From an uncultured Chloroflexia bacterium (GTDB lineage: Bacteria > Chloroflexota > Anaerolineae > CG2-30-64-16): 64,000 bases of DNA. Position 1 is the stretch's first letter, and each line of letters begins with the position of its first letter. Of this stretch, positions 19,805-45,721 are shown in pieces. The stretch spans positions 576,001 through 640,000 of the forward strand of contig CAWEMM010000007.1 of NCBI GenBank assembly GCA_963810095.1, given 5' to 3'. Made by a program: the position numbers and the translations under genes. Below the pieces are notes generated by a model. That model saw only the letters and a program-made list of their open reading frames with translations, had not been told where the DNA came from and searched no databases.

Positions 19805-19861
19805 AAGGTACGCCCTTTAGGGCGTGCAGGGAATGCCCAAAAGGGACCACTGTGGATGTAA
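19805..19861 (-). promoter_or_regulatory. Shared activator-type promoter motif, site A (sulfatase 1)
   Basis: TACATC-cacag-TGGTCC-CTTTT-GGGC-24 nt-TACCTT. Confidence 0.6.
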
Positions 19862-19901
19862 TGTTGTCAACTGCGCGTTCTGCCCCCCCGGAAATGAACC
19901 A

Positions 19902-19960
19902 GTATCCAGGCGAGAATCGGCTGGGGCCGGTCGGAGACCGGCCAACGCATCTTGGATAGA
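19902..19960. repeat. REP-like element, GCTGGGGCCGGTC family (shortened copy 2)
   Basis: GTATC..CGAGAA..GCTGGGGCCGGTCGGAGACCGGCCAA..GGATAGA; the ends match copy 1. Confidence 0.6.
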
Positions 19961-20212
19961 TTGTAGGCCCCTGGCCCGTTCCGAGCCGATTCAGGAGTCA
20001 TGCTGGCGCGACAGGGGGCGAGTTCGCGTCCGTCACACAGACTGGCTGGCGTGGGGGCATGGGCAGCGCCGCAGACAGAAGCATTGAGCGCGTCTGGACT
20101 CCTGTTAGCGGCGCTCTCGCAAAGGGCCAACGCCGCGACCCGCAACGACGACGCGGGGCCTTGGATACTGGGACTCTAGCCGACATCTCGGCGGTGCACG
20201 CTAAACTGATGC

Positions 20213-20311
20213 GAAATGGGACACTGATGCAACTGATTGAACTGATCTGCACGGTCTTTTGGGTAAAGCGCGTGATAATCAGTCCGATCCGTTCAATCAG
20301 TGTCCCATTTC
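20213..20311. repeat. Inverted repeat built of 9-nt periodic ACTGAT units
   Basis: 16-bp perfect terminal IR GAAATGGGACACTGAT/ATCAGTGTCCCATTTC; ACTGAT at 20223, 20232 and 20241. Confidence 0.7.
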
Positions 20312-20368
20312 ATCCCGCTTTGTCCGGCAGCGCGGGGTGAAGGTCTGGTCGCAAAGTGGAAAGGACTC

Positions 20369-20400
20369 GCTGTAGGGCGCGCTTTGGCGCGCCCTACAGC
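20369..20400. repeat. GTAG-type REP hairpin, possible terminator
   Basis: GCTGTAGGGCGCGC-TTTG-GCGCGCCCTACAGC, a 14-bp perfect stem just after the DUF1269 gene. Confidence 0.65.
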
Positions 20401-20421
20401 GCAACCCGTATTGCGATCAGC

Positions 20422-20940
20422 TTAGGCGGCGGGCGCATCCGCCGCGGGTTCGTCGGCCGGCAGCGACTCGGCGGCCGCGGCCGCTTCCTCGACTGCCTCG
20501 TCCGACACTTCGTACGCCTCTGCCGTGCCGCCGAGCTCCGCAAGCTTGGCCTTGACGGCCTCGACCTCAGCCGCATCGACCATCAGGCCCACTGCCGCCT
20601 TGCCGGCGTCCAATTCGGTGTTCAGCTTGGCCTGCTCGTCCTTCGAGATGTTCAGCCCCTTCTTGAACAGCGAACCCAGGACCGCGCCCCCGATCAGCCC
20701 ACCCAGCAGGGTGACGCCGCCCGAAAAAACGCCCAGGATCACGCCGAGGACCGCGCCGCCCTTGGTCTTGCGCGAGCCCATCTTGTGCGTCTTGATCTTG
20801 CCCTTCTCGTCCTTGACCAGGATGCCGATGGCGCCCAGCTTGACGTCAGCGCTGGCCTTGTCCCACGCCTTGATCTGGTCGGCGGCGGCGTCCGCAGCGG
20901 CTTCGTCGGCGAAGAGAGCGAGTACGAGTTGCTTTCCCAT
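20422..20940 (-). CDS. DUF1269-like membrane-associated protein
   Basis: LVLALFADEAAAD..AIGILVKDEKGKIK, glycine-zipper GGAVLGVILGVFSGG..GGLIGGAVLG, LDAGKAAVGLMV; AGGAG RBS. Confidence 0.75.
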   Translation of the reverse strand: MGKQLVLALFADEAAADAAADQIKAWDKASADVKLGAIGILVKDEKGKIKTHKMGSRKTKGGAVLGVILGVFSGGVTLLGGLIGGAVLGSLFKKGLNISKDEQAKLNTELDAGKAAVGLMVDAAEVEAVKAKLAELGGTAEAYEVSDEAVEEAAAAAESLPADEPAADAPAA

Positions 20941-21005
20941 TGTGCATTCTCCTTGAGTGGTTGTTGCAGCCGCCAGGTCCTGATGACCTGTCCGGCCTAC
21001 ACTAC

Positions 21006-21063
21006 ACCATACGGCCCGGTAGAGTGGACCACAACGCCCAAAATGGTGTACTTAAGGCGTAGT
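21006..21063 (-). promoter_or_regulatory. Shared activator-type promoter motif, site B (DUF1269 gene)
   Basis: TACGCC-ttaag-TACACC-ATTTT-GGGC-24 nt-TATGGT. Confidence 0.65.
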
Positions 21064-21171: not shown

Positions 21172-21517
21172 TTAGTCCCGCAGCAGTTTCTGCTTCGCCA
21201 GGCTGAACTCCTCGTCCGTCAGCACCCCGGCGCCGTGCAGTTTGCCCAGCTGCTCCAACTGTGCGACCAAGTCCGGCCTCTGGTTCGGCGCGGCCGCTAC
21301 CGGGACAGCCGTGTACCGCGCCACACCTGGCCCCAACCCACGGTTGAATCGAGCGGCCGGCAGGCGAACCGGCCCCGCCGTGGGCTGGACGCCCGGCTGG
21401 AGGGCCGCCGCCTGGTAGCGCCGCCGCATTGCCGAGGAGGTCACCCCAATCACGCTGCCCACCACCACTGCGCCGAGCCAGCGCGCCTACAAGCCCGTCA
21501 TGATCGAACATCAGCAT
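21172..21517 (-). CDS. SHOCT domain protein (start uncertain, probable frameshift near 21475)
   Basis: C-terminal LVAQLEQLGKLHGAGVLTDEEFSLAKQKLL; paralogous layout to 43171..43560. Confidence 0.7.
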
Positions 21518-21534
21518 CGCCCCCCTGGTCTCGG

Positions 21535-23404
21535 CTAAGCCACCCGGGTGATGGCCGGCAGCACATAGGTCCCGTCCAAAATCTGCTGCTTGGGCTGGTA
21601 GAGGCGCATGATCGGCCGGAACGGACCGCTCTGCGGTGCAGGCAGCCAGTTCGACTCCTTGTCCGCGCCCGGCGAGTCCTTCTGGATGTACAGCGTCACC
21701 GAGCCGTCCGGCCCGTATTTCAACCCAGGCGTCCGGTCGCCGATGGAGTAGCGGTTGATGGGGTTGGCGACCAGGTAGAACTCGGGCACGTCGTACATGG
21801 TCAGTGACCAGAACGCGTCGACAGGCGGGGCTCGGGCAGCGTCAGTTCGTACCGGTGATCGCTGTGGAGCGGCTCGTTGTCCGCGTCCACATAGACAATG
21901 CTATAGTCGGCCTCATAGCCGTGATTGCCCCACAGGCCCGCCCGGGCCACCACGGCGCGCGTGACATAGGCGATAGTCCGGTCGGCGATAATCCACTCGG
22001 GCGCGTCCAGCGCGCCGATTTCGAAGAAGTCCAGCGTTGTAGTCGAACAGGTGCTTCGACTCCTGCCAGCCGTTGACCGGCTTGGCCGCGGTGTTGATCA
22101 GTTCCTCGATCTTGTTCTGTGCGGCCTGCTGGCCCGCGACCAGCACCTGCGCCAGTGCCGGGCTGGCATTCACGTAGAGCGATTCCGCTGCGGTCAGCCC
22201 CAGCTTCTCGCAGATCGCCTGGAACGGCGCGTCGGCCGCAGGCGGCGGGAACGCCTGGAGTGCCACCCGGAACGCCTCCCACCACTTGAGCGTCGTCCCG
22301 CACGCGCGCGTCCGGCTCGGGCACGCCGGCGACTGCCGTGGGTTCGCCGCCCGCCAGCGGGGCCAGGGTGAACTGGTCCTGCAGCGCGTGGGCGGTGGGC
22401 AGGTCGGCCTCGCCGTTCACCGCGATACGGCCGACGATGGCAAACATGCCGGTCGGCGCGCAGACGAGATGCATGCCCTCGGGAATGGGGGCCGCGTAGT
22501 CGCGGGCCGCCAGCACATAGTCTGCCTCGGCAGTGCCCGTCGCGCGGCGCCCGATGTACGCAAAGTTGTTCGTCCAGGCATCCACGAACTGCAGGACGTA
22601 GTAGCGGTCTGCTGTGTCCGGCGTGTGGAGCACCAGCGGACCTTCCCGCACGTCGCAGATGGCGATCATGTAGAGCGTGTCGTTATTGGGCGAGACGAAA
22701 TGAGCGTCGGGGCCCAGCAATTGGCGAGCATACCCCACCGTGTTGTAGGGCAGGGCCTGAGGCCCGACCAGGTTCGGCCCCCCTGGGAACTTGGCCATCT
22801 CGGTCAGGTTGTAGACGAGCGGGTAGCCGTAGATGTAGGCCTCGGCGGCCAGCTTGACGTGCTCGGCCACGTCTGCACTGGCTGCCGAGGCAACCGCCGG
22901 CGCGGCGGCAGACGCCTGTTCGGCGGGCTCGGCTGCCGTCGCTTCGGCCTGTTCGACCACCGCGTCGCCCATCTCATGTGTTTCTATGCGCGCGCCCAAT
23001 GACGACAGGAATCCCGTGATCCCTACGACCTCATCGGGGTTCACCATCAGGCCCACCGCGGCCTTGCCGCCGTCGAGTTCGGCGTCGAGGTGGGCCATGT
23101 CGGCCTTCGAGAGGCCCAGGCCCTTGTGGAACAGCGAGCCGAAGACCCCGCCGATCAGCAGCCCTCCAAGGACCGTCAAGCCGCCCGATAGGAGGCTGGC
23201 CAGGCCGAACAGCAGCGCGCCGGTGCCTGTCCGCCGCGTGCCGAGCTTCTGCGTCTTGATCTTGCCCTTGTCGTCTTTCACCAGGATGCCGATCGCTCCC
23301 AGCTTGATGTCCGGGCTGATGCGGTCCCAGTCCTTCACCTGCTTCACCGCGTCATCCGCGGCGGCTTCGCTGGCGAAGAATGCCAATATCAGTTGCTTAC
23401 CCAT
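21535..23404 (-). CDS. DUF1269-DUF1254-DUF1214 fusion protein (several frameshifts)
   Basis: N-terminus nearly colinear with 20422..20940; then YIYGYPLV, VSPNNDTLY, DRYYVLQFVDAWTNNFAYIGRRATGT; C-terminus NPINRYSIGDRTPGL..DGSVTLYIQ..NWLPAP..MRLYQP. Confidence 0.8.
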
Positions 23405-23447
23405 GCGATTTCCTCCAAGTCAGTTCTGACTGCTACAACTGCCGCGC

Positions 23448-24206
23448 TTATTCGTACTTCGGTTCCCAGCCGGGTGCCATCTTCTCTTTGAGCGTTTCCC
23501 GGCGGGTGACCGTTCCCACGACATGTTCGGGCAGCCGGGGCAGCGGCTCTTCCCAGGCGAACCACAGGGCCGCGGTTCGGAACGAGAACCCGACGACGAA
23601 CGAAATCAGCGTCGCCGGCCAGATCGACAGGCCCAGGTACTTGGACATGATCAGGAAGACGACTGAGGTCAGCACGGCCGTCCCCACGAACCACTCGCCG
23701 CGGATGAACTGCTTGGCCGAGTGCCCTGCAGTGATGTCAATCAGGAAACGGCCGGCGGTGGGGCCGACGACGCCGATCGCGATGGCCGCAATGTCGGGCA
23801 GGCCGGCAGTCAGCGCGGCGCTCACGCCGATCGCCGCGTACCAGGGCAGTGAGAACGCGGTCATGAACTGGTAGAAGGTCTCGCGGAACTTCTGGCCGCC
23901 CTTGTAGGAGATCAGCATGCCGACGACGCCGGCCAGCAGGCACAGGATTAGGTACCAGGGGTTCGACAGTGCGCCCGGCACCTTGTTCAGCAGGACGTCG
24001 CGCGAGACGCCGCCGCCGATGCCGCCGAAGATCGCGAGGAGCAAGATGCCGACGATCGACCACTGGCGGCCACGGTAGTAGTCGGGGCGCTGGGCCAGCA
24101 GCGCGCCGTTGAGTGCATTGGTGCTGGCCGCGATCAAATCGATGATCACGAAACTTCCGACTGTGATGAATGAAGCGAGGTAGGCCAACCATTGCTGGAA
24201 TTCCAT
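23448..24206 (-). CDS. TRIC (UPF0126) cation channel family protein
   Basis: AASTNALNGALLA, GGIGGGVSRDVLL and a second repeat GPTAGRFLIDI; GGAGG RBS. Confidence 0.8.
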   Translation of the reverse strand: MEFQQWLAYLASFITVGSFVIIDLIAASTNALNGALLAQRPDYYRGRQWSIVGILLLAIFGGIGGGVSRDVLLNKVPGALSNPWYLILCLLAGVVGMLISYKGGQKFRETFYQFMTAFSLPWYAAIGVSAALTAGLPDIAAIAIGVVGPTAGRFLIDITAGHSAKQFIRGEWFVGTAVLTSVVFLIMSKYLGLSIWPATLISFVVGFSFRTAALWFAWEEPLPRLPEHVVGTVTRRETLKEKMAPGWEPKYE

Positions 24207-24312
24207 ATCACCGTGCCTCCGAGATAAACGAGAATCGTCTCGCCGGGTGGGCAGACACAGGCCGGGCATACCACGCTCGAGGTCAGCCCGGCACTAGTCG
24301 TCGCCGTTGATG

Positions 24313-25938
24313 TTACTTCTGTGCGCCTTCCGCGATCACGGCGGCCGTGTCCTTCTCGTGATATTCCATCAGCAGCTTGCGCTCGTCGTCCTGCTTGGGG
24401 AACACGAAGAACACCAGCGCCGCGCCCACGACCACCGCGATGATGCCCGCGATGTACGCGGTTTGATCGCCGGCCAGGAACGACGCCTGGGCAGCCGACG
24501 TGATCTGGGTGGCATACTGCGGGTACTGCGCGGCGACGGCCTGCGCGCCCGCGTACGACATCTCGAGGCTGTTAGCGACGTTGCTCGGGATGCTCGGGTC
24601 AGCCGCCGCCTGGGTTGCCATCGCAGCGGCATAGCCCGAGGCCAGCAGTGCGCCGAAGAGCGAGTTGAAGAGCGCGCCGCCCAGGTCGCGTTGCAGGTCG
24701 GCGGTGCCCGACGCCATGCCCGCCCGGGTCACGGGGACCGAGCCGGTCAGCGCGCGTGAGGCGGGCGTGCCCGCCAAACCGATGCCGATGCCCACGAAAG
24801 AGTAGGCCAGGCCAACAGGCAGGTAGGAGCTGCCCTCTTTCCACAGCAGCAGCATTGTCAGGAAGCCAAGGAGAACGAACACGTAGCCAATGAGGAACAC
24901 CTGGCGCGAGCCGCGGGCCTCGACCAGCTTAGCCGAGCGCGGTGCGGCGAGGATCATGAGGAAGCCCGCCGGCAGCACCGCGGCGCCCGCAGCCACGGTC
25001 GAGTAGCCCAGCACGTCCTGCATGTACTGCTGGCCGATGAACATGGCGCCCATCAGCGAGCCGAAGACGATGATGCCCGCGAGCGCCGCCACCCAGAACG
25101 TCGGGCGAGCGGCAATCTTCAGATCGTACAGCGGATTGCCGGCGCGTCGCTGCCGGACGACGAACAGCGCAGTCGCGACCGCAGCCGCGACGAGCAGCCC
25201 CACTGCGAGCTTCTGGTACGCGGGCACTGGCAGGAAGTTGAGCGACAGCACAAATGCGCCGATCAGTACGACCGATAGGATGCCGCCTAGATGGTCAACC
25301 GGCTCCTTGGTCTCATTCACATGCGCCGGGATGAAACGCAGCGCCATGATGAGCGCCACAACCGCCAGCGGCACCACCACGACAAAGACCGAACTCCATG
25401 GGAATACGGTCAGCAGCAGCCCCGACAGCAGTGGCCCCGTCACCGAAATGGCGCCGCCGATGGCCGCCCACAACGCAATCGAGCGCGTGCGGCCCGGTCC
25501 GGGCCCCCACAGGGCCGCGATGAGCGCCAGGGTTGTGGGGTAAGCCATACCTGCCGCAAAGCCGCCGAAGAGCCGGCCGAAGATCAGCACGTTGATCGTA
25601 GGCGCAAAGCCCGAGATGAGCGCGGCCGGGATTGCCAATGTGACGCCCAGCAGCGCCATCAGCTTGCGCCCGTAGCGGTCGCCCACCGCGCCCAGCCACA
25701 GCACCGAGCACGCCAGGCCTAGCGAGTAGGCCACGGCGACCAGATTCAGTTGCGTTTGTGAGGCGTCGAAATAGACGCCGATCGACGGCAGAGCGACGTT
25801 GGCCATCGCCAGCGGTAGGTTGGCGACCGCTGCGACAATAATCAACGTGCCCAGCACCAACCCTGCCTTGGCCGGAGCAGTCGCGCCTGACGGCACTTGC
25901 GGCCCTGCGGGCATTGCGGAAGCGACACTTACGGACAT
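24313..25938 (-). CDS. MFS transporter, DHA2 (14-TM) type
   Basis: NVALPSI, GAVGDRYGRK, GPLLSG, QQYMQDVLGYS, AGMASGTADLQRDLGGA. Confidence 0.88.
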   Translation of the reverse strand: MSVSVASAMPAGPQVPSGATAPAKAGLVLGTLIIVAAVANLPLAMANVALPSIGVYFDASQTQLNLVAVAYSLGLACSVLWLGAVGDRYGRKLMALLGVTLAIPAALISGFAPTINVLIFGRLFGGFAAGMAYPTTLALIAALWGPGPGRTRSIALWAAIGGAISVTGPLLSGLLLTVFPWSSVFVVVVPLAVVALIMALRFIPAHVNETKEPVDHLGGILSVVLIGAFVLSLNFLPVPAYQKLAVGLLVAAAVATALFVVRQRRAGNPLYDLKIAARPTFWVAALAGIIVFGSLMGAMFIGQQYMQDVLGYSTVAAGAAVLPAGFLMILAAPRSAKLVEARGSRQVFLIGYVFVLLGFLTMLLLWKEGSSYLPVGLAYSFVGIGIGLAGTPASRALTGSVPVTRAGMASGTADLQRDLGGALFNSLFGALLASGYAAAMATQAAADPSIPSNVANSLEMSYAGAQAVAAQYPQYATQITSAAQASFLAGDQTAYIAGIIAVVVGAALVFFVFPKQDDERKLLMEYHEKDTAAVIAEGAQK

Positions 25939-26243
25939 GGTTCCGCTCCTTCAGACAATTTCTTCCGACTGCCGGCGAGCCTCCGGCGATCCTGCATTCC
26001 GGTCGGACCTCTCGACGCGCCCGAACTTGATGACAAACCGTAGACTCCGCGGCCTGCCCGCCCTCGTCATTGGAGAGAGTTGCATCGGCCACATTCGCCC
26101 GCACGACTCCGCCGCCGGCCCTCCGGTGCACCGTGCGTGCCCCGCGTGGGACCGGCTGCATCCCGTGCCAGGAGGCGCAATGCGCGGCCTCCTGGCCGGA
26201 ATCCATCTGGCCGGCAAAACTCACGGTTTCGCCGGCCAGAACA

Positions 26244-27860
26244 CTACGCCGCAGGCGGGATATCGCCCGGCAGCTCGACGTCTGGCAGGTCGGCTGCCGG
26301 CAGTTCAGCTGCGGGCAGATCGACAGCGGGCGCAGCGGCCGTATCCGCGACGACAGACTTCGCTTCGGCCTCGGCCAGGCTGGCCTCGGCATTCCGGTAC
26401 CAGCGTACCAACTGGAACTTCGCAACGTCCGTGCCGCCCAGGCCAAAGGCCAACGCGACCGCAAGCGCAACGCCGGCCAGGATCAGGCCGAATGTGAGGT
26501 TGACGACGTCGTTGGCGATGCCCATCTGGTCCAATGCCATGGCCACCGCAAAGACGACGATCGCGAGCCGGGCCAGCAGCGCCAGCACCTGCCTCTGCTT
26601 GAGGCGGGTGGCCAGGATCAGCTTGCTGGTGAAGTTGGCCAGGTAGATGCCGATGACGATGATGATGAACGCCAGGGCCAGCCGGGCCAGGAAGGCGATG
26701 AACGCGGTCAGGATGGCCACCATGGCGGCCCAACCGAGGAGGTCGACGACGGCCAGCGTGGCAAACAGCATGACCACAAAGAGAATCAGGTAGCCGGCGA
26801 TGCGCGACGGGCCCACTGCAGGGGTATCGGAGATCTCGCCCAGGCTGAGCCGGGCGACCAGGTTGTCAAACCCGGCATTGGTCAGCAGGCGTGTCACCAG
26901 GTCTGCGATCACCCGGGCGACCATGTAGGCGACGAACAGAATCACGATGGCCATGAAGATCTTGGGGATGGCCAGCAAGACCTGCGTCAGCATGTCCGCC
27001 ATTGGCTGGGCGAGGTAGGTCAGGCCCAAGGCGTTCAGGGCGGCGATGGCAACCGGGATGAAGACGATGATGTACACGACCAGGCCCAGCAGCCCGGACA
27101 GATTCCCCTTGCCCAGGTACTTGCCGAGGCCGACGCGGTCGCTGATGGCGTCGAGGCCGAGCGCGTGCAGCGCCGACGTGATCAGCCGCTGCAGGATGCG
27201 GGCGACGAACAGGCCGATGACGATGATGACGACCGCCATTGCCAGCCGGGGCAGGAAGGCCAGGATGCTCGTAATCATGGCCTGGATCGGGGCGAGGATG
27301 CCCATCAAGCCAAGCACGCCCAGGATCGCCGGCAGGAACAGCAGCCAGACCAGCCAGTAGACCGCTTCGCCGATCGCGGTGGAGATGGGCGCCTCGTTCA
27401 TGCCCGCAGGTTCGGTCACCTTCTTGTCCGCACCGGCGGTATGGAGCACACGGGTGACGAGGGCGCGCAGGATGCGGGCAACGATCCAGGCGACGACTGC
27501 CAGGACGACCGCGTAGGCGAACCGTGGCAGGTACGCAAAGACCGATACGAGCATGGTGCCAAACAGCGCGGTAATCGCCGTGAGCCCGAGCGCGTTTAGC
27601 GCGGCCAGCACGGTAAGGAAGACGATCAACCAGTAAACGACCTGGGTGATCACCTTCTCCACGCTCATAGGTTTGTCGCCTGCGCCCTCCATGCCGCGTG
27701 CGAGGCGGTCGTCAAGCTTGAGCCACCTGAGCAGCCGCCGCGTGACGCCGGCGAGCAGGCGCGCGATCAGCCAGCCGATCAGCAGGATCAGCAGCGCGGC
27801 GACGACGCGCGGGATCCAGATCTGCGCTTGCTGCAGCAGCCACTGGCCAAAGTTCTCCAT
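26244..27860 (-). CDS. CmpX-like protein with repeated TM-helix units (mechanosensitive-channel associated)
   Basis: Repeated (Y/F)LPR..A..I..IG..VAR units; C-terminal VALAVALAFGLGG; AGGAG RBS. Confidence 0.8.
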   Translation of the reverse strand: MENFGQWLLQQAQIWIPRVVAALLILLIGWLIARLLAGVTRRLLRWLKLDDRLARGMEGAGDKPMSVEKVITQVVYWLIVFLTVLAALNALGLTAITALFGTMLVSVFAYLPRFAYAVVLAVVAWIVARILRALVTRVLHTAGADKKVTEPAGMNEAPISTAIGEAVYWLVWLLFLPAILGVLGLMGILAPIQAMITSILAFLPRLAMAVVIIVIGLFVARILQRLITSALHALGLDAISDRVGLGKYLGKGNLSGLLGLVVYIIVFIPVAIAALNALGLTYLAQPMADMLTQVLLAIPKIFMAIVILFVAYMVARVIADLVTRLLTNAGFDNLVARLSLGEISDTPAVGPSRIAGYLILFVVMLFATLAVVDLLGWAAMVAILTAFIAFLARLALAFIIIVIGIYLANFTSKLILATRLKQRQVLALLARLAIVVFAVAMALDQMGIANDVVNLTFGLILAGVALAVALAFGLGGTDVAKFQLVRWYRNAEASLAEAEAKSVVADTAAAPAVDLPAAELPAADLPDVELPGDIPPAA

Positions 27861-28155: not shown

Positions 28156-28416
28156 CTACGGGGCTGCGTCCGCCATCCGCTTCACGTCGAGCAGTGGGTA
28201 TCCCATGTCGTAGAGCTCGGTGAGGACGCTGATGAGGCATGCCTGGTCGATGACCATGCCGGTCAGGGTCGTGGTGGGGGGATCGCCCCGCACTTCACTC
28301 AGGCAACCGGTCATCCCGCAAAAGGGATCGAGGCGAGGCGCGGCGAAGCGCCCCAGAACCCGAATCCGGTAGGTGCCAGGTGCATCGAACAGGTTGCTCT
28401 TGGCGTCGGCCTTCAT
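28156..28416 (-). CDS. Small ACT-like hypothetical protein (paralog 1)
   Basis: YRIRVLG..TTLTGMVIDQACLISVLTELYDMGYPLLDV aligns with 45355..45594; AGGAG RBS. Confidence 0.75.
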   Translation of the reverse strand: MKADAKSNLFDAPGTYRIRVLGRFAAPRLDPFCGMTGCLSEVRGDPPTTTLTGMVIDQACLISVLTELYDMGYPLLDVKRMADAAP

Positions 28417-28484: not shown

Positions 28485-28541
28485 ATCATCGCGCTCTCTG
28501 CAACGGAGCTAAAGGCCCATTTTGGTGTAATTGGATGTAGT
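28485..28541 (-). promoter_or_regulatory. Shared activator-type promoter motif, site C
   Basis: TACATC-caat-TACACC-AAAAT-GGGC-24 nt-GATGAT. Confidence 0.6.
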
Positions 28542-36807: not shown

Positions 36808-36820
36808 TGGTGTTACCTCC

Positions 36821-38486
36821 CTATGCAACCGCAGGCGCCGCTTGGTGTTCCCGGCGCCCTTCTTCGTCTACGATTTCTTTGGCACTCAGCTCGGTGAGCC
36901 GGTAACGCGGCAGCCGCATGGCCGGGAAGATCGCCACCAGGCAGATCAGGGCCAGCAGCAGGAACGACGCCTTAAGCGCGTTGATCCGTGCGACCTGGTT
37001 AATGCGCACCAACTCTTCGGCCTCGGCGGGCGCGACGGGCGTGGCAGCCAGCCTGTCTTTGAGTTGCACGTCGCTGATAAAGTCCACCCGGCTAACGTTG
37101 TCCAGGTTGAACTGCGGCGGCAAGTTCGCCCGGCCCAGGCCGGCGCCCAGCGCGGTGGTCAGCAGAGTCACCGCCACGACGCCGGCAAACGCCGCGCCCA
37201 GCGCCGAGGAGACGTTGTTAGCCACGCCGCGCAGCGCACCGACGTCGCCCGCGTATTCTTTCGGCGACGCGGACACCAGCACGTTGAAGAGAAGCGTCAG
37301 CATCGTACCCTCGCCGATGCCTGCGAGGATCAGCCCGAGGATGACAAAGGGCGTCCCCCAGCCGCCGCCGATGGCCAGCCCGACGAGTGCGAACCCGACT
37401 GCGTTGAGAATGAAACAGCTGGCGCCCAACACCCGCGGGTTGATCCGGTCGTACAGCCGCACGGAGAGGATCGCGGCCGCCGCGACCGCCAGCGCATAGG
37501 GCACGATGGCTACAGAGGTAAAGAGCGGCGTCTGGCCCTGCACAATCTGAATGTAGAGCGGGATGAGGAAGCTGATCGCCGCCCCAAGTGCGCCCGCCAC
37601 GAGGAAGGCCAGCACCGCGTTGCGCTCTTCGGACGAATTGAGCACCTCGCGCGCCAACAGCGGCGTCTTGCCCTGATCCTCACGGCGCTTGAGCCACACG
37701 AAGAACGCCTGGCCCAAGACGACGCCGGCGATCATGAAGATCGGCACGGGCGATAGGCCGAAGACGTTGAACGGCGCGTCTGGCGTGGCCAATATCAGGC
37801 CCCAGTGGTTGATGTTGTTGAACGCGAAGAGGATCAGCGTGATCGAGAGCGCCGACAGGAGGACGCCGACGAAGTCGATCTTGATGTTCCGCTGGCGCGG
37901 CACCGGCGTGAGGCGGAAGCTCAATGCCAGCACCAGGAGCGACTGGAGGAAGATGATGCCGAACGAGATGCGCCAGTTCAGCGCCGTGGCGATCCAGCCG
38001 GCGACGATAAACGCCAGCCCGCTGGCGATGGCCGGAATGCTGGCCAGGATGCCCAGGGCTTGCGACTGCTGCTTGCCGCTGTAATTGGCCGCGATCAGCA
38101 CGACCAGCGTCGGCACGAGCAGCGCGGCGGCCAGCCCCGCGATCGAGCTGCGCGGCGTTCATCATGGCCGCGTCGCGGCTGATCGCCATCAATGCCATTG
38201 CCAGACCGTGGGCCAACGCGCTGACCTGGAACACGAGGCGCTCGCCGAACAGCTTTCCCAGCTTGGCCCCCAGCATGACGAATGCCGCGACCGCCAACGA
38301 GTACAGGACCAGCGCCGTCGATACGGCAGTCGCGGGCGCATTCAGGTCCTGCAGGATGGGACCGAGCGAGACCGGCAGCGCGTTCACGTTGATGCCCATC
38401 TGCAACTGCGCAATGACGATGATGATCAGGGGCAGCCACGAGGCAGCCGCTTCTGCTTTTCCGACGGAGATCGACCTATCTGCCAT
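36821..38486 (-). CDS. MFS transporter (frameshift at ~38140)
   Basis: N-terminus WLPLIIIVIAQLQM..GAKLGKLFG (ORF 37680..38909) continues in ORF 36821..38116 with LYIQIVQG and ALGAAFAG. Confidence 0.85.
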
Positions 38487-38515
38487 AATTACTGCTCCTT
38501 GTGCAGCGCCCGGCA

Positions 38516-39202
38516 TCAACCGATCAGGGCGGAGATGCCCTTGTACAGGAAGAACAGCCCGAATACCAGGTAGACTGCAATGAAGACCGGCCGGCTGTTG
38601 CGCTCCAGCCATGTACGGACTGCGAAAATGGCACGATTCGCCCGCTCGGGCGATAGCACGGAAGCGATCACGGCGACCAATCCAAATACCTGGGCGCCCA
38701 GCACATAGGACAGGAAGAGCCCGGCGCTGGTGGGCGGGCCAAAATGGGCCTTTTCCAGAACGCCGATGGCTCCGAGCGTGAAGACCCACTGTTTGCCGGA
38801 GAGCAGAACCACCGCGACGCCCATGCCGAACGCCATAAGCGCGGAAAGGTTGCCGAGGGAGGCCATCCATTTGGGCGGCGGCTCGTCGGGATCGGCCTCT
38901 TTGGTCCATTTCTTAAATGCGTTGATCAGCATCAGGACGCCGATCACGATCAGCAGTGTGGAGACGATGAGGTTGCCACCGGCTTCGGTCGTCGCCGCGG
39001 GGTCACCGGCGAAGATCCAGCCGAACGCGATTCCTTGCGCGAGCCGCACGAGGATAGCGCCGGCGACGAAGGCCGCGCCCTTCGCCAGCCCGCCCCGGTT
39101 GCTTAGCAGGAGGAGCACGATCATGATAGGGACGGGGACGACGGCCGCGCCGATAATCAAAGGGAGGAGTTCGATGAAAACAGAACCGGTGCTTGGCTGC
39201 AT
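38516..39202 (-). CDS. GAP (Sap/SfLAP-like) family membrane protein
   Basis: LLPLIIGAAVVPVPIMIVLLLL, PPKWM, WLERN..GLFFLYKGI. Confidence 0.8.
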   Translation of the reverse strand: MQPSTGSVFIELLPLIIGAAVVPVPIMIVLLLLSNRGGLAKGAAFVAGAILVRLAQGIAFGWIFAGDPAATTEAGGNLIVSTLLIVIGVLMLINAFKKWTKEADPDEPPPKWMASLGNLSALMAFGMGVAVVLLSGKQWVFTLGAIGVLEKAHFGPPTSAGLFLSYVLGAQVFGLVAVIASVLSPERANRAIFAVRTWLERNSRPVFIAVYLVFGLFFLYKGISALIG

Positions 39203-39312
39203 GGGCGACGTCCCTTCGTGCAGTGGCGATGTCGCAATGCCGGGTGCGAACTGAGAGTGAACACCTGCAATTCACACCGTGAGGCAAGATTTGGTCTGCC
39301 GGGCCACGTTGG

Positions 39313-39341
39313 TGCGGGCCGGGCGCTAAGCCCGGCCCGCA
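39313..39341. terminator. GC-rich hairpin after the META lipoprotein gene
   Basis: TGCGGGCCGGGC-GCTAA-GCCCGGCCCGCA; no clear U-tract. Confidence 0.4.
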
Positions 39342-39355
39342 TTAGAGCGGCGGCG

Positions 39356-41272
39356 CTATTGCGCGCGGTTTGCCATCACAGCCAGCGCATCAGCCGCAGA
39401 GCGAATCTGGAGCTGAGCGCCGCTGATTTGGAAGGTGGCTGCCGAATTGAGCGCAGCCAGGAACTGCTGCTCCTGCTGCATCACGCCTTCCGGCGAGTCG
39501 CAGAACAGGTTGGTGCTACCCGGCCGGTCGATCGTCAGCACATTGCCGCCGGCCTGGTAGTTGGCGAAGAAGTTGTTGCAACCCGCCTTGCCCTGTACCC
39601 GGCCCGTCGCGTCGAAGTCCATCGTGATCGTGCTCCCCTCGACGAGGCCGACCACCGCGCCGCCGTTGTTGAAGTTCGTCACGGTCCAGCGGGTGCCCGC
39701 CAACGGATTGACGACCGTGGGCGGCTGGGGTGGGGCAATGGGCTGCGTCGCGACTGGCGGCGGCTGGGGCGGCGCGATGGGCTGCGTCACGTTGATGGTC
39801 ACCTGGCGGAACTGGGTGGACCCGTCGTTCATCTGCACGCGCATCTCGTAGGTCGTCGTCGCGGCGGGGCACACCCGCTCGCTGCCCTGGCCCGTGCGGG
39901 GGAACGCGCTGAAGTTGGAGCCCTGCGGGTAGATCCACACCCCCTGCACGTTGCGGACATCCCAGTTAAGGGTGGCGCACTCGCCCGCGTTGATCTGCGT
40001 GCGGTCGGCCCAGAAATTGATCTGTGCCTGGGGCGGAATGGGCGTCGCGACGATGGGCGCCGCCGTCGGGGGGACGCGTGTTGGTGCAGGTGTCGGCGGC
40101 ACGCGGGTTGCGGTCGGCACCGGGGTCGGCGGCGACGCGACGACCGGCACGTTCTCGGCATTGGTCGCGGTCACAAAGTCGGCCGAGACCCAGCCGGAGC
40201 CGCCTGGCAGTGCCGGGGCTTCGACCTGCCACCAGCGTCCGTCCTGGCTGCGGCCGATCAGCGTGCCAGAGTCGCCCTGGCGGGCCGCGCCGATGATCGG
40301 GAAGTTGGTGCCCGGGCCCGAACGGATGTTGAGCACGCTGGCGCCGGTGACGGTCCCCGTGGGCGTCTGCGGCGCGGGCTGGGGCAAATCGACGATCTGC
40401 TCCTTCACCGCGATCACCGCGATTGCGTCGCCCGCGGTACGCAGCCAAAGCTCGTCGCCCTCGATGCGGTACGTCGCGGCAGTTTGGAGGGCGGCCAGGT
40501 ACTGCGCCTCCTGGTCCATCACGCCCTGGGGCGACTCGCAGAACATCTGGGTCGAGCCGGCCGCATCGATGGTGATTGTGTTGTCCTGGGCCTTGTAGCC
40601 CGCGAAGTAATTGTTGCACCCGGCGTTGCCGTTCAGCTGGTCCTTCTCGAAGTTGAGCGTGATCTCAGTCCCGTCGAGGACGCCAACAACCGCTTCGCGG
40701 CCGTTGTTGTAGTTCACGACGGCCCAGGCCGTGCCTTCCAGCTTCTGGACGTCGGCGATGAATGTCAGCACGATGTCGCTGCCGGCGAAGAGCACGAGCT
40801 GCCGGGCGCTCATGGCGAAGCGGGTCACGCTCGCCAACGCCTTCTGATACTCGGCGGCCTGGGTCATCACGGGCTCGGCGCAGGCCATCATCGTACCGGC
40901 CATGGGTTGCATGAAGGTGAGAGCGTCGCCAAGCTGGTTGTACGTGGTCGTGTAGCGGTTACAGCCGTCCGAGCCACTGGCCGAGCCATCCATTCCGAAC
41001 TGCAGGGTGATGGCGGCTTCGTCAATCGGCAGGCTGCCGTTCAGCGAGCTCATGATCCATGCGGTGCCCGCGAGGACTGGTGCGGCAGGCGCGATGATCT
41101 CCGGGCCGGGCTGTGCGATGGCCTGGGTCGGCGCGGGGGCGACGGCGGTTGGCTCCGTCGCGGCCGCGGGGGCGACCGTCGGCGCTTCAAGCGGCGGCAG
41201 CGGACCGGGCGCGCAGGCCGCGGCCAGCAAGGTGACCAACAGCAAGAGTGACAGTAGGGAGAACTTGCTCAT
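39356..41272 (-). CDS. Lipoprotein with three META (HslJ-like) domains, an SH3b domain and Pro/Thr linkers
   Basis: Lipobox LAAAC; three L(A/E)GT.W...G..GCN..(T/F)..Y...T.(M/L).C...VM.Q units; LNIRSGPGTNFPIIG SH3b. Confidence 0.88.
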   Translation of the reverse strand: MSKFSLLSLLLLVTLLAAACAPGPLPPLEAPTVAPAAATEPTAVAPAPTQAIAQPGPEIIAPAAPVLAGTAWIMSSLNGSLPIDEAAITLQFGMDGSASGSDGCNRYTTTYNQLGDALTFMQPMAGTMMACAEPVMTQAAEYQKALASVTRFAMSARQLVLFAGSDIVLTFIADVQKLEGTAWAVVNYNNGREAVVGVLDGTEITLNFEKDQLNGNAGCNNYFAGYKAQDNTITIDAAGSTQMFCESPQGVMDQEAQYLAALQTAATYRIEGDELWLRTAGDAIAVIAVKEQIVDLPQPAPQTPTGTVTGASVLNIRSGPGTNFPIIGAARQGDSGTLIGRSQDGRWWQVEAPALPGGSGWVSADFVTATNAENVPVVASPPTPVPTATRVPPTPAPTRVPPTAAPIVATPIPPQAQINFWADRTQINAGECATLNWDVRNVQGVWIYPQGSNFSAFPRTGQGSERVCPAATTTYEMRVQMNDGSTQFRQVTINVTQPIAPPQPPPVATQPIAPPQPPTVVNPLAGTRWTVTNFNNGGAVVGLVEGSTITMDFDATGRVQGKAGCNNFFANYQAGGNVLTIDRPGSTNLFCDSPEGVMQQEQQFLAALNSAATFQISGAQLQIRSAADALAVMANRAQ

Positions 41273-41359
41273 GTTAGATGTCCTTTCGGATAGGTGTGTT
41301 CGTGCGGGCCTTGTCGCTCAGGCTGCCCGCACGCGGGCTCGGACACGCCTGCGCGCGTC

Positions 41360-43093
41360 CTACGGTTGGCCCGGGCTGGTCGTCTCTCCCAGCCACTGCG
41401 ATGCGACCTGGACGGCCGCGTTCACTGCGGCTCCGATCTGCGGTTGTGCGACAAACACGTTCTCGGGGCCGAGGACCGCCAGCATTCCGGTCCTGCTCAA
41501 CTGTTCGTACATCTGAGGCGCGACACCGACAAGCATCAGCCGGCCGTCCCGCGCTCTCAACGCGTCGGCATAGCGCTTGAGCACGTTCATGAACGTGCTG
41601 CCCAGCTCGGGCTCGCCGCGTACGATGATCGCAATTGCGGCACGCGTCGACTGGTCCACCTTCGGCAGCATTTCCTCTACACTGCTGGCCGCGGCGAAGA
41701 ACAGGCTGCCGTAGATGTAGAGAAGCGTGAAGCGGTTGCTGGAAGCCTCTTTCGGCGGCGCCTGCTCGATTGGCCACCCGCCCGGCCCGTTCGGCCCGTT
41801 CGGCTGCAGCGCCCACTCGGTGACGACGACCTTGTTCGATGCGCGGATGACGTGCAAGACGATGCTGAGCGCAACGCCCAACAGCACGGCGAACTGCAGC
41901 GAGACGAAGAGCGTGGCGACGAACGTAATGACCATCACCACCGCCGTCACCCGGCCGGTCTTCCACGCAGTGACCGCCTGCTCGATCCGCAACCCCTGGA
42001 AACCGGCGACGATCAGCAGCGCCGCCAGCGCGGGCATGGGCACCCGCTCGACCAACGGCGCGAACAGCAGGACGACGAGTGCGACAAACACGCCGGCGAA
42101 GATGTTCGTCCAGCGCGACTTGGCGCCCGCACCCATGATGAGTGCCGTGCCCGAGATGGATCCGCCGGCCGGAGGTCCGCCGACAAAGCTGGTCGCCAGG
42201 TTGGCCGCACCCTGGCCGAAGAAGTCACGCGAGACGTTGGGAAACTTGCCGTTGGGGTTCGGCGTGCCCTGGCTGACGCCCGCACCCTGGATCAGGCCGA
42301 TGATCGCGAGTGAGAACGCGGGCAGCAGCATGGGCAGGATGAACGACGGGTTGGGCAGCGCAAGACGCGGGAGCGATCTCGGAATGCTGGTGATATCGCC
42401 AACCGTTTGCACTTGCGCGAAGTAGGCGGCCGTCGGCAGCTGGGGGAGCGTCAGGATGGCAAGCAGCAGCGTGGCCGCGCCGATCCCGATGATGAAGGCG
42501 AAGCGCTTCAGGCGCGTTGCCAGCAGCGCGACGATCAGCCCCAGGGTCAGCAGGCCGACGACGGTGGTGGGGACGACGACCTCCGTGGGGTTGAGCAATA
42601 GGTGCAGTGCGCGGACGACGCTGTTCCGGTACGGGCTGCTAAAGCCGGTGAGATCGGCGAGCTGGCCGAGGATGATGAGCACGGCGACGCCGTTGAGAAA
42701 GCCCGTCATTACCGCGTTCGAGACGAAGCGCAGCACGAAGCCGAGCCGGAAGATGCCTGCCAGCAGCTGGATAAGGCCGACGAGAAGCACCATCACGACC
42801 AGCGCTTCCATGCGCTGGGCGGGAGGCACGGCGACCAGGCCGGCGCCCGCGGCCACGGACAGCGCGCTCGTCGTCGACACGTTCATGTACACCGAGCTGG
42901 TGAAAATCGCGCCGACCGGCACCGCGACCATCAGCGTGTAAATCCCGAACACCGGGTTGATCGTGGCCAACAGCGCATGCCCCATCGCCTGGGGCACGTT
43001 CACGACGGCAAACGTGAGCCCGGCGATGAGGTCGGAGACGATATTCGCGCGCTCCGGCTTGAGGTGCTGGGTAGCAGTAGTCAACTGTTGCAT
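41360..43093 (-). CDS. sulP: SulP family anion transporter with STAS domain
   Basis: DLIAGLTFAVVNVPQAM, VSNAVMTGFLNG, GQGAANL, GGSISGT, YGSLFFAAA. Confidence 0.9.
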   Translation of the reverse strand: MQQLTTATQHLKPERANIVSDLIAGLTFAVVNVPQAMGHALLATINPVFGIYTLMVAVPVGAIFTSSVYMNVSTTSALSVAAGAGLVAVPPAQRMEALVVMVLLVGLIQLLAGIFRLGFVLRFVSNAVMTGFLNGVAVLIILGQLADLTGFSSPYRNSVVRALHLLLNPTEVVVPTTVVGLLTLGLIVALLATRLKRFAFIIGIGAATLLLAILTLPQLPTAAYFAQVQTVGDITSIPRSLPRLALPNPSFILPMLLPAFSLAIIGLIQGAGVSQGTPNPNGKFPNVSRDFFGQGAANLATSFVGGPPAGGSISGTALIMGAGAKSRWTNIFAGVFVALVVLLFAPLVERVPMPALAALLIVAGFQGLRIEQAVTAWKTGRVTAVVMVITFVATLFVSLQFAVLLGVALSIVLHVIRASNKVVVTEWALQPNGPNGPGGWPIEQAPPKEASSNRFTLLYIYGSLFFAAASSVEEMLPKVDQSTRAAIAIIVRGEPELGSTFMNVLKRYADALRARDGRLMLVGVAPQMYEQLSRTGMLAVLGPENVFVAQPQIGAAVNAAVQVASQWLGETTSPGQP

Positions 43094-43121
43094 GCCATCA
43101 CCCGTGGGAATAGGTGCGCGA

Positions 43122-43158
43122 CTGACGCTCGCGGTGGCGCCGCCACCGCGAGCGTCAG
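43122..43158. repeat. 17-bp perfect intergenic hairpin (REP-like)
   Basis: CTGACGCTCGCGGTGGC-GCC-GCCACCGCGAGCGTCAG. Confidence 0.6.
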
Positions 43159-43170
43159 CCTGGGTTGCGC

Positions 43171-43560
43171 TTAATTGATCAGCTTGGCCTTCATGGCAGC
43201 GAATTCCTCATCCGTCAGGACGCCTGCTGCCTTAAGCTCACCCAGCTTCTGCAATTGGGCGATCACATCGTCGGTCGCTGCCGGGGCAGGAGCAGCCGCC
43301 GGCGCCTCGGCCGCAACTTCGGCGGGAGCCTGCGCGGCCATTTGTGCGGCTACGGCAGCCGCAGCTGCAGCGTCGATCTGGGCCTGCTGCTCGGCGGCGG
43401 CCTGTTGGGCGGCGGCTTCCTGCGCCGCTTGTTGCTGCGCGGCAGCCTGCTGCTGTGCCGCGGCCTTTTGCTGCTGTGAGCCTGCCACAGCGCCCGAAAC
43501 GACGGTTGCGGTGCCCGCGATGACCGCGGTGCGTCCGATTGTGCGTGCAAGTCTTGGCAT
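43171..43560 (-). CDS. SHOCT domain protein
   Basis: RTAVIAGTATVVSG, Q/A-rich linker, VIAQLQKLGELKAAGVLTDEEFAAMKAKLI; GGAGG RBS. Confidence 0.85.
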   Translation of the reverse strand: MPRLARTIGRTAVIAGTATVVSGAVAGSQQQKAAAQQQAAAQQQAAQEAAAQQAAAEQQAQIDAAAAAAVAAQMAAQAPAEVAAEAPAAAPAPAATDDVIAQLQKLGELKAAGVLTDEEFAAMKAKLIN

Positions 43561-43586
43561 GTCAGTCCTCCATCAGGTATTGGTGT

Positions 43587-43625
43587 GTAGGGGCGCGGCA
43601 TTCTCGAAGAGAATGCCGCGCCCCT
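43587..43625. repeat. GTAG-type REP hairpin
   Basis: GTAGGGGCGCGGCATTCTC-GAA-GAGAATGCCGCGCCCCT. Confidence 0.65.
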
Positions 43626-43631
43626 CCTTGT

Positions 43632-45125
43632 CTAGTGATTAGCGCCCCCGCTGGCGTCTTCAAGCTTCCGCATGACGGCTTCGAGGTTGAACGAGGCCGG
43701 CTTCTGGCGCGGCGGGTACTTTACGAAGTCCTCGATCTGCTGGGCCACCAGCCCCTGCATGCCGTACAGCAGGTAGGCGTGCGAAATGACCCAGTCCCAA
43801 TATGTGTTCGAACTCTCGTCCGCCCGCTCGAACGGGTCACGGCGCAAGTTGAACATCTTGGGTGCGCGCAGCGCCACGAACGGTTCGAACCAGCACGCCA
43901 GCGCGGTCGCGCGCTGTTCCATCAGGACCAGCTTCCAGTCGCCGTGGCGGATGGCCATGATGTCGCCGTCGTCGCTCATGTAGAAGAAGAAGCGGCGCGG
44001 GCTCTCCTTGGCCTCGCCCGTCAAGTAGGGCAGCATGTCGTACCCGTCGATGTGGACCTTGTAGGTCTTGTCGCCGGCCTGGTGCCCTTCGAGCAGCTTG
44101 GCCACGATGTCACCCTCGCCCGCGGCGGCCAGCAGCGTCGGGAGCCAGTCCTGGTGCGTAACGATGCCGTTCAGCACGGTCCCGTCCGCGATCTTGGCTG
44201 GCCAGCGCACAAAGGTTGGCACCCGGAACGCGCCCTCCCAGTTCGTGTTCTTCTCAGAACGGAACGGGGTGATGCCTGCGTCGGGCCAGCTGTTGTAGTG
44301 CACGCCGTTGTCGGTCGAGTACATCACGATCGTGTTCTCGGCAATGCCCAACTCGTCCAGCTTCTCCAGCATCCGGCCAACGTTCTCGTCGTGCGCCACC
44401 ATCACGTCGGCATAGTCGCCCTGCCCGTTGCTCTTGCCCTTGTGCTTCGCGGCCGGGTGGGTGCGGAAGTGCATGGCGGTGGTGTTCCACCAGAGGAAGA
44501 ACGGTTTGTCCGACCGGTGTGCTTCGTCGATGAACCGTAAGGCCTCGTCGGTCACCTCGTCGTCGATCGTCTCCATCCGCTTCTTGGTGAGCGGGCCGGT
44601 GTCCTCGATCCGCTGCCCGCCGTTCCCGTCCGCCCAGCTGTGGATGACCCCCCGAGGTCCGAAGCGCGCCTTGAAGGCCGGGTCCGTCGGATAGTCCGGG
44701 TCCTCCGGCTCCTCCTCGGCGTTCAGGTGGTACAGGTTGCCGAAGAACTCGTCGAAGCCGTGCATCGTGGGCAGAAACTTGTCCTGGTCGCCCAGGTGGT
44801 TCTTGCCGAACTGACCCGTCACGTAGCCGAGCGGTTTGAGCAGCTCGGCAATGGTCGGGTCTTCCGCCTGCAGGCCCAGGTCGGACCCGGGCATGCCGAC
44901 CTTCGTCAAGCCGGTCCGGATGGGGTTCTGGCCGGTGAGAAAGGCCGCCCGACCGGCAGTGCAGCTCTGCTGGCCGTAATAGTCGGTGAAGGCGACGCCC
45001 TCATTCGCAATACGGTCGATGTTGGGGGTCCGGTAGCCCATCTGGCCCCGGCTGTTGTAGCTGATGTTCCACCAGCCGATGTCGTCGCCCCACAGGATGA
45101 GGATGTTAGGCCGCTCTGATGCCAT
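43632..45125 (-). CDS. Arylsulfatase, Cys-type, CxAxR motif
   Basis: PNILILWGDDIG, TPNIDRIA, QSCTAGRAAFLTG, GKNHLGD, STDNG, EKNTNWEGAFRVP; no signal peptide. Confidence 0.95.
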   Translation of the reverse strand: MASERPNILILWGDDIGWWNISYNSRGQMGYRTPNIDRIANEGVAFTDYYGQQSCTAGRAAFLTGQNPIRTGLTKVGMPGSDLGLQAEDPTIAELLKPLGYVTGQFGKNHLGDQDKFLPTMHGFDEFFGNLYHLNAEEEPEDPDYPTDPAFKARFGPRGVIHSWADGNGGQRIEDTGPLTKKRMETIDDEVTDEALRFIDEAHRSDKPFFLWWNTTAMHFRTHPAAKHKGKSNGQGDYADVMVAHDENVGRMLEKLDELGIAENTIVMYSTDNGVHYNSWPDAGITPFRSEKNTNWEGAFRVPTFVRWPAKIADGTVLNGIVTHQDWLPTLLAAAGEGDIVAKLLEGHQAGDKTYKVHIDGYDMLPYLTGEAKESPRRFFFYMSDDGDIMAIRHGDWKLVLMEQRATALACWFEPFVALRAPKMFNLRRDPFERADESSNTYWDWVISHAYLLYGMQGLVAQQIEDFVKYPPRQKPASFNLEAVMRKLEDASGGANH

Positions 45126-45354
45126 ACTTAGCTCCCTTTCTCCGTGATCAGTACTCGAGATGGATTGGCGCCGAAACGTGGATGGGGACGCTGTGCGCGC
45201 CGCTCAGCAGCGCGACCGGGATACCCGCGACCGCGGCGGCGCCACACGCTTTAGGCGCCGAAAGAGCGGGAATTCGAGGGTGAATGACCGTCATATATCG
45301 CTCCGCCTGGCTCGTCTCGAAGCCCACGCGTTCCTGCCATTCGGCGCGGGGCCG

Positions 45355-45594
45355 TCATGCCAGGGCGGGCAGCGACTCGACGAGTATCAGTCGCATGCCC
45401 AGCATGAAGAGCGTGTCGAGCACTCCCTGCAGCGCGGACTGATCGACGATCTGGCCTTCCAGCCGGGTGATGACCACGTCCCCGGACTGCCGCTGCTCGG
45501 ATGCTTCAAAGCCGCCGAGGCATTGTAACCACATGGGATCGAGCACGCCTTCTACCACGATGCGATAGTGGGTCGCCTGTGATGCTTGCCTCAT
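45355..45594 (-). CDS. Small ACT-like hypothetical protein (paralog 2)
   Basis: YRIVVEGVLD..TRLEGQIVDQSALQGVLDTLFMLGMRLILV; divergent from the MalT-like gene. Confidence 0.75.
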   Translation of the reverse strand: MRQASQATHYRIVVEGVLDPMWLQCLGGFEASEQRQSGDVVITRLEGQIVDQSALQGVLDTLFMLGMRLILVESLPALA

Positions 45595-45664
45595 GCTGCC
45601 TTCATCCAAGCAAACAGTATCGTATTCCTTGTCAGCCGGCCCACCGCACGGGGCCATAAGTTAC

Positions 45665-45721
45665 ATTGTATGGCGATCGTGCAGCGATTGATAGACCCTA
45701 AAAAGGGGCTAATAGGGAGCA
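45665..45721 (-). promoter_or_regulatory. Shared activator-type promoter motif, site D (head of the long minus-strand unit)
   Basis: TGCTCC-ctat-TAGCCCC-TTTTTA-GGGT-24 nt-TACAAT. Confidence 0.55.

Follow-up and report, generated by a model that had tools for sequence, protein, structure and literature searches.

The window analysed here, a stretch of 64,000 nucleotides from an uncultured Chloroflexia bacterium (assembly GCA_963810095.1, contig CAWEMM010000007.1, positions 576,001 to 640,000), contains two genes for MalT-like regulators and, on its minus strand, four promoter sites, A to D, that share one motif. Regulator 1 (8582..11413, plus strand, 943 aa) and regulator 2 (45878..48610, plus strand, 910 aa) both consist of an N-terminal STAND ATPase, a TPR_MalT sensor, and a C-terminal LuxR-type helix-turn-helix (HTH) domain, and regulator 1 matches the Pfam families AAA_16, TPR_MalT, and GerE. 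A Walker A motif is present in both, a Walker B pattern only in regulator 1, and the two acidic residues of Walker B are conserved in the alignment of regulators. The recognition helix reads TVKRH in regulator 1 and TVKKH in regulator 2. In the whole genome, 11 proteins exceed the Pfam cut-off for TPR_MalT, and nine MalT-like genes, regulator 1 included, encode a helix of the form T-x-[KR]-R-H. Regulator 1 is followed by a terminator-like hairpin. In front of regulator 2, the sequence contains an extended -10 element, TG-n-TATAAT (45815..45823, plus strand), which probably serves as its activator-independent promoter. Site D is divergent from regulator 2, as an earlier reading of this DNA, the original prediction, had noted for one of the regulators.

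With site spans counted from the first half-site to the end of the -10 hexamer, site A (19805..19860) has half-sites at 19860 and 19849, a T-tract, GG at 19838, and the hexamer TACCTT; site B (21006..21061) has half-sites at 21061 and 21050, GG at 21039, and TATGGT; and site C (28485..28539) has half-sites at 28539 and 28529, GG at 28518, and a weak -10 hexamer, GATGAT. Site D (45665..45721), with GG at 45698 and TACAAT as -10 hexamer, is a variant operator, since its second half-site lies 13 nt from GG, instead of 11 nt as in A to C, and differs in sequence. Transcription start sites (TSSs) are predicted at about 19798, 20999, 28478, and 45658, respectively. The four motif strings originally proposed are all present as written; of the coordinates given with them, the lower ends and those of D are correct, whereas the upper ends of A to C were 1 to 2 nt too long. 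From the start of GG to the start of the -10 hexamer there are 28 nt in all four sites, i.e., GGGY plus the proposed fixed spacer of 24 nt, and the half-sites, thought to be 10 to 11 bp apart, recur with a period of 11 nt in A and B and of 10 nt in C and D. None of the four has a TTGACA -35 element, and a scan of the whole window with TTGAC[AT]-N16-18-TAnnnT gave three such promoters elsewhere (52200 on the plus strand, 6127 and 2304 on the minus strand), just as had been stated. Scored with a model made from 21 sites of other genomes, in which the -10 spacing does not count, A to D reach 25.7, 27.9, 26.2, and 17.5 bits, while the best of 30 shuffled windows reaches 14.6 bits; this sequence match is partly circular, since 13 of the 21 training sites were fetched by a pattern derived from this genome. 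The four sites are real and more than chance. D is the weakest of them and stands outside the 27 best operator-only matches in the genome. Within the 24-nt spacer of site A, a short inverted repeat (19793-19820, plus strand) scores as a core motif of the opposite strand, with no gene behind it.

The shared motif, termed type I, reads TACACCC-N3/4-TACACCC-WWWW-GG..CT-N22-TAnnnT, and with a probability of roughly 0.85 it is an operator to which MalT-like regulators of the TVKRH/TVKKH clade are predicted to bind. In the consensus of the 21 sites from other genomes, with the -10 hexamer counted as -12 to -7, TACACCC begins at -62 and T(G/A)CACC(C/T) at -51, followed by TTTT, GG at -40, and CT at -36/-35. 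The position is that of a MalT site. In Escherichia coli all four promoters inspected (malP, malE, malK, and malS) have an nAnnnT hexamer 28 nt after the start of the proximal GGA(G/T)GA box, these hexamers being assigned by us from sequence and not from mapped TSSs, and at malP, malK, and malS the upstream boxes are inverted relative to the proximal GG box, the same layout as at the window sites. MalT of E. coli shares the NOD-TPR-LuxR HTH architecture (PMC10427625), although the window regulators, at 375 and 320.5 bits, remain below the 537-bit cut-off of its equivalog PRK04841, and its recognition helix is TIKTH. The resemblance of the boxes proper, which the original prediction had stressed, is partial: CATCC is contained in sites A and C only, and the consensus half-site TACACCC (or TRCACCY) differs from the E. 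coli box TC(A/C)TCC with its GGA(G/T)GA core, the type I core being CAYCC after TA or TG. No operon for maltose transport or utilisation was seen behind type I sites.

When the genome outside the window is searched with a model of A to D from which the -10 term is omitted, 16 matches exceed 17 bits, 13 of them intergenic, although intergenic DNA makes up 19% of the genome. TAnnnT lies exactly 24 nt away in seven of these 16, as compared to 0.47% per intergenic position (binomial 2e-11, corrected for 40 offsets). The positional bias that the original prediction had named as a check is seen in the histogram of offsets. Only this histogram discriminates; counts of total-score matches at shifted spacers do not, as the operator part alone passes the threshold, and a loose scan with a regular expression gave 98 mostly coding and uninformative matches. 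Among the 15 best operator-only matches, 14 are intergenic and 11 have [TG]AnnnT exactly 28 nt from GG, with none at 26, 27, 29, or 30 nt. A co-occurrence with MalT-like genes, also anticipated, is evident from the ten of these 15 matches that have a TVKRH/TVKKH regulator at most 20 kb away, a zone covering 4.2% of the genome.

About 20 credible intergenic type I sites are distributed over contigs C4, C5, C7, C8, C9, C12, and C15; a list of 22 credible sites chosen by us was used for counts of neighbouring genes, and genes outside the window were called with a simple caller of our own. The first genes behind the sites code for DUF1269 and DUF6325 proteins, ornithine carbamoyltransferase, a sensor kinase, LURP-one and PRC-barrel proteins, a pyridine nucleotide-disulphide reductase, a ligand-gated channel, and a sulfatase. 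The strongest site, C9:392957, is isolated and lies near leuS before a gene for a 287-aa protein without Pfam match; since no TVKRH/TVKKH regulator is found within 20 kb of it, action in trans is likely. A candidate at C13:9709 was dropped because it lacks the upstream repeat and has a good -35 element of its own. That the sites might simply have arisen by duplication of a single promoter, or be recognised by an alternative sigma factor and not by an activator, seems extremely improbable. Several of them do precede homologous genes, eight of the 22 standing before genes for the same small protein (see below), and some promoters on C4, C5, and C15 are clearly related; the other sites, however, precede at least ten unrelated families and have dissimilar 24-nt spacers. 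The conserved bases extend from -62 to -35, past the reach of the contact that sigma makes at -35, and the -10 hexamer is sigma-70-like.

Outside this genome, 40 regions around MalT-like genes from eight relatives contain TAnnnT at 24 nt in 12 of 47 intergenic matches. There the direct repeat and the T-tract persist and the GGGY half degenerates, and a looser pattern is found in two of seven genomes of the same genus and in two of 150 genomes of the same class. Both pattern-positive genomes among the 150, one of whose two matches is itself a training site, belong to the six with a TVKRH-type HTH, while none of the other 144 is positive. A scan of 185,579 genomes that started from the motif identified 12 loci, 11 of them labelled as lineages that we assign to the Chloroflexota by these labels; in six of the 12 a MalT-like gene occurs within 9 kb, and all eight of those genes encode a T[VA]KRH helix. 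One of the 12 loci, L064, is probably a chance match, without a regulator and with CT not at its usual place after GG. If, conversely, the remaining four of those six genomes, chosen blindly by the helix alone, are examined, three of them have a site of 25 to 34 bits located 80 to 150 nt behind the regulator.

A de novo motif search in 421 upstream regions of relatives, with this genome excluded, recovers several motifs at a fixed distance from the -10 hexamer, which after refinement constitute operator types I to IV. Scoring with one genome left out at a time assigned an operator type to 40 of 78 regulators; 64 of the 78 fall into five helix classes, 37 of these being among the assigned ones, and helix class and type of the adjacent operator agree in 36 of the 37, with the classes fixed after the motif results had been seen, two rows set by hand, and three doubtful training sites dropped. 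TVKRH regulators have type I in 16 of 27 cases, seven of which come from loci selected by motif, and TVKKH regulators have type I in three of seven and type II in one; TVKGH goes with type IV (7/11), TLRTH with type III (7/9), and TVK[TSA]H with type II (3/10). Five of 600 control segments pass the threshold. Applied out of sample to this 6.1-Mb genome, the models for types III and IV each give a single match that exceeds 19 bits, and each match stands immediately behind a regulator whose class fits. Regulators of this genome with other helices include those at C9:20335 (TVKGH) and C15:7842 (TVRTH). Among 11 distant MalT-like loci from named records besides that of E. coli (L061, L062, L076-L078, L081-L086), the models found nothing in eight, one of which, L062, had been predicted as type II. 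A type III site lies 3.5 kb from L061, a TVRTH regulator on a cyanobacterial plasmid, another with 13.5 bits was obtained at L076, and L081 has palindromes. In a tree built without the HTH domain, operator types map one-to-one on regulator clades, with four changes for five groups, which is the minimum, and each subgroup of MalT-like regulators appears, as far as sequence can tell, to have its own DNA site; the link between clade and operator amounts to only four to five evolutionary events. Types III and IV (for example at L053, L059, and L050) carry an extra copy of the half-site between operator and -10 hexamer, unlike type I. Two further operator-like variants at a fixed -10 distance were noticed, one upstream at L031:8275-8829 and L035:2012-2566 and the other at L053:17272 and L054:3180, beside regulators with the helices TEGTVKSH and LGTVKKH.

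Several observations weigh against a type I operator read by the TVKRH/TVKKH clade. Regulator 1 has no adjacent type I site, 11 of the 27 TVKRH regulators are without an adjacent site above threshold, and one of the four genomes chosen blindly by helix has none. The strict consensus is absent from all 300 other genomes of the class, meaning that its GGGY half is weak outside this genome. The helix residue that defines the classes aligns with Val189 of NarL, which contacts bases (PMC10853779), but agreement of helix and operator does not show that this residue is causal, as the types correspond one-to-one to clades defined without the HTH and go back to few inherited events. Finally, a type I site heads a GAF-HisKA_3 kinase and a NarL-type response regulator (C9:165516-167706), and a similar response regulator lies behind a type I site in genome G004 (L037); the window, too, has a GAF-HisKA_3 kinase (6283-7590). 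These genes would suit a NarL-type response regulator as the reader of the site, with the MalT-like genes merely co-located, the more so as the heptamer resembles half-sites of the NarL family. Sites of the NarL family (7-2-7), of BldM (a palindrome), and of the PAS-LuxR proteins PimM and RazD belong to the same HTH family and have C-rich half-sites at about -43; they are dimer palindromes of small regulators, whereas type I is a phased direct repeat that tracks large STAND proteins and does not have the NarL 7-2-7 layout (PMC13683440, PMC8914203, PMC10853779). In addition, a type I site adjoins only one of 34 other LuxR-type HTH genes, as opposed to 16 of 27 TVKRH regulators, and the operator type changes with the MalT-like clade. 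A NarL-type reader is for these reasons very unlikely. The kinase and response regulator at C9:165516-167933 might form a second tier of the regulon.

Among MalT-like readers, the original prediction had considered one or both flanking regulators. A MalT-like activator site is supported by the MalT-type position and the link with the clade; restriction to the flanking genes was too narrow, because with nine members of the TVKRH clade in the genome sites A to C cannot be assigned to the two neighbours alone. Regulator 1, the candidate nearest to these three sites, which in the tree belongs to a starred clade of 16 rows with 12 type-I-linked regulators, and/or its eight paralogues with the same helix most likely read A to C in trans, and regulator 2, which groups with its orthologue from genome G027, is the likely reader of D. 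Site D is conserved at orthologous regulators in G001 and G027, where it stands behind the regulator instead of divergent from it. One could also imagine that both window regulators and the paralogues read A to D equally well, without specificity inside the larger clade: the two regulators fall into one 27-row clade with support 100, D and its orthologues reach 13 to 26 bits with the type I model, and the site at C4:2268 is D-like although its neighbours are TVKRH regulators. This we regard as unlikely, given that the second half-site and spacing of D differ and are conserved in three genomes beside regulator 2 orthologues, even where the gene order is different. At C4:2369-4384, a type I site and two MalT-like genes are followed by a gene whose product contains the ligand-binding domain of neurotransmitter-gated ion channels (PF02931).

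If type I is indeed the operator of this clade, its action could be envisaged along the lines known for MalT, which oligomerises on binding ligand and ATP and occupies several sites cooperatively (PMC10427625). Ligand binding would cause the regulator ATPase to oligomerise, and its HTH domains would settle on the half-sites centred at about -59 and -48, which are separated by one helical turn, and also on a third half-site, weaker and in inverted orientation, that spans -40 to -35 (near -37). The oligomer would then replace the poor -35 element and recruit sigma-70 polymerase, with regulator 2 (TVKKH) reading the D variant and regulator 1 and/or its paralogues reading A to C from elsewhere. 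A defined operator and about 20 target promoters would thereby become available for a regulator family in uncultured Chloroflexota, and the unnamed families DUF1269, DUF6325, SHOCT, and DUF1254 would be tied to one switch.

The first gene after site C (28156..28416, minus strand) and the first after site D (45355..45594, minus strand) code for unnamed proteins of about 86 aa and of 79 aa. They belong to a family that we label DQAAL after a conserved motif and define by a hidden Markov model (HMM) of our own, which the site C protein matches with an E-value of 1e-27. The family has no match in Pfam or NCBIfam, and its neighbours in the Atlas are unnamed clusters. DQAAL genes are found beside 32 of 75 MalT-like genes and beside three of 37 other LuxR HTH matches, these three being MalT-like genes whose N-terminus had been missed by the filter, and they follow all three sites in the blindly chosen genomes as well as the eight credible sites mentioned above. 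The DQAAL tree separates a type I side from a type III/IV side with support 76, a split that linkage alone could explain. DQAAL genes also occur behind MalT-like genes on plasmids of Chlorohelix and Deinococcus (L082, L083, L084), where none of the four operator models scored. The protein behind site D is modelled with a predicted local distance difference test (pLDDT) value of 86.9 and a DSSP order of E-H-E-E-H-E, i.e., beta-alpha-beta-beta-alpha-beta, consistent with an ACT/RAM-like fold. Foldseek gave no match to this model at E 0.001 or better. Its top structural matches include ACT and Lrp/AsnC RAM domains, the best with Z 8.4 and a root-mean-square deviation of 2.8 over 78 aligned residues, tied with other ferredoxin-like folds and hence not specific for a family; stand-alone ACT/RAM domains share this fold, whereas DQAAL lacks a sequence family match and its Z is at the level of a common fold. 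A predicted complex with regulator 2 scores 0.41, the best of three controls scoring 0.00; the mark used for this score is reached by 116 of 157 solved complexes and two of 215 mismatches, and at 0.60 or below by 18 solved complexes and both mismatches. Runs agree in at least 82% of contacts and partner pLDDT is at least 74. These models give weak support to binding of DQAAL to regulator 2, a lead, and the protein may act back on its regulator. Protein modulators of MalT are established (PMC10427625); MalY and Aes, however, are enzymes, whereas DQAAL is a small ACT-like protein. If it binds the regulator, a new mode of control would be added to those of bacterial STAND proteins.

A speculative and rather improbable extension would be that Chloroflexota possess mutually insulated STAND switch modules, in which the helix residue at the position of NarL Val189 determines the operator of each clade and the first product induced is a cognate small ACT-like protein, which would bind the regulator and tune it by feedback or ligand relay. 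If true, STAND modulators would include a class not yet described, and LuxR-type helices would follow a natural recognition code. The table of clades and operators makes specificity testable with isolated HTH domains and regulons assignable in genomes rich in paralogues. A literature search, mainly of open-access articles, yielded no paper that describes the type I operator, operators particular to single clades of MalT-like proteins, or the small protein.

The basic idea of such a regulon is not new; what appears to be new is the table of clades and operators and the small ACT-like gene. The original prediction had spoken of an uncharacterised regulon, yet the same type of regulator, probably the same promoter position, and many of the gene families have already been shown in Actinoplanes SE50/110, where deletion and overexpression demonstrate that a MalT-like protein activates 42 of 51 genes of an island (PMC7567727). 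As here, the regulator resides within its gene island together with a second paralogue, and the Actinoplanes operator, TCATCC-N5-GGATGA at the -35 region, ends about 34 nt before the TSS, as the window sites would if their TAnnnT hexamers are -10 elements (PMC7567727). Families common to both include SHOCT, DUF1269, AI-2E, a glucosidase with an alpha-amylase-type enzyme, arginine deiminase, ornithine carbamoyltransferase, ThrE, M20 dipeptidase, MFS, and DUF308, as well as ppk2 in relatives, while in the workbook of that paper DUF1254 is absent and four sulfatase rows lie outside the island (PMC7567727). The operators differ, in that Actinoplanes has a palindrome and type I consists mainly of a direct repeat of 11 bp and a T-tract, its inverted half being weak; and there is one island there, whereas here the sites are spread over seven contigs with about ten clade members. 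The Actinoplanes-like palindrome resembles type II, found beside [PA]NTVK[STA]H helices, a correspondence drawn from the motif, and the helix of ACSP50_3915 is predicted to be of the type II class; in a Nonomuraea island the palindrome (one mismatch allowed) recurs ten times in 41 kb, with the regulator helix PNTVKTH, and matches type II. The window thus contains a variant of the Actinoplanes kind of regulon with a different operator, and the regulon of about 20 promoters would be its Chloroflexota counterpart. Regulon content comprises the arginine deiminase pathway, K+, Na+, Cl-, and mechanosensitive transport, PPK2, a P-type ATPase, and DUF308, from which a role in survival of ion, pH, and energy stress may tentatively be proposed, one that leaves the sulfatases unexplained. 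A block coding for a glycogen-debranching enzyme, an MGH1-like glycosidase, DUF6325, and SHOCT occurs twice in the genome (C9:9837-16398, locus L001; C15:30596-37137, locus L015) and is reminiscent of the Actinoplanes island with its pair of glucosidase and alpha-amylase.

As regards the genes behind the window sites, all on the minus strand, their content agrees with the original expectation of sulfatase, DUF1269, DUF1254, and SHOCT genes. Site A precedes an arylsulfatase gene (17301..19689), which a frameshift near 19500 separates from its start at 19689, and site B a DUF1269 gene (20422..20940; E 7e-6, 26.7 bits against a cut-off of 26.9), for whose product no plasmid match was found. After the DQAAL gene of site C, genes at 21172..27860 for a mechanosensitive channel, a DHA2 MFS transporter, a PF03458 membrane protein, DUF1254/DUF1214 (split), and a SHOCT protein are probably co-transcribed from site C, judging by strand and spacing. 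Behind site D, the genes of the same strand (28942..45125) code for a sulfatase, SHOCT, SulP, META/SH3, GAP (SfLAP), MFS, two M20 peptidases, AbgT, a PF03458 protein, a hydrolase, and a CAAX protease. An anaerobic sulfatase maturase gene (48702..50060, minus strand; TIGR03942 over cut-off) lies beside regulator 2, and the window scan found no type I site before it.

Genes split by frameshifts are common in the window (21535-23404, 50843-52151, and 59463-61101), and four MalT-like paralogues are split likewise, at C8:159693-162457 and C9:159287-162057 and also on C5 and C12. The break near 19500 is probably an assembly error, as a 283-nt contig of another run is one base shorter there and otherwise identical. 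Since, for at least the breaks near 19500 and 21826, contigs from other runs show a difference of one base, assembly indels are likely, and they may affect homopolymer lengths inside the sites as well.

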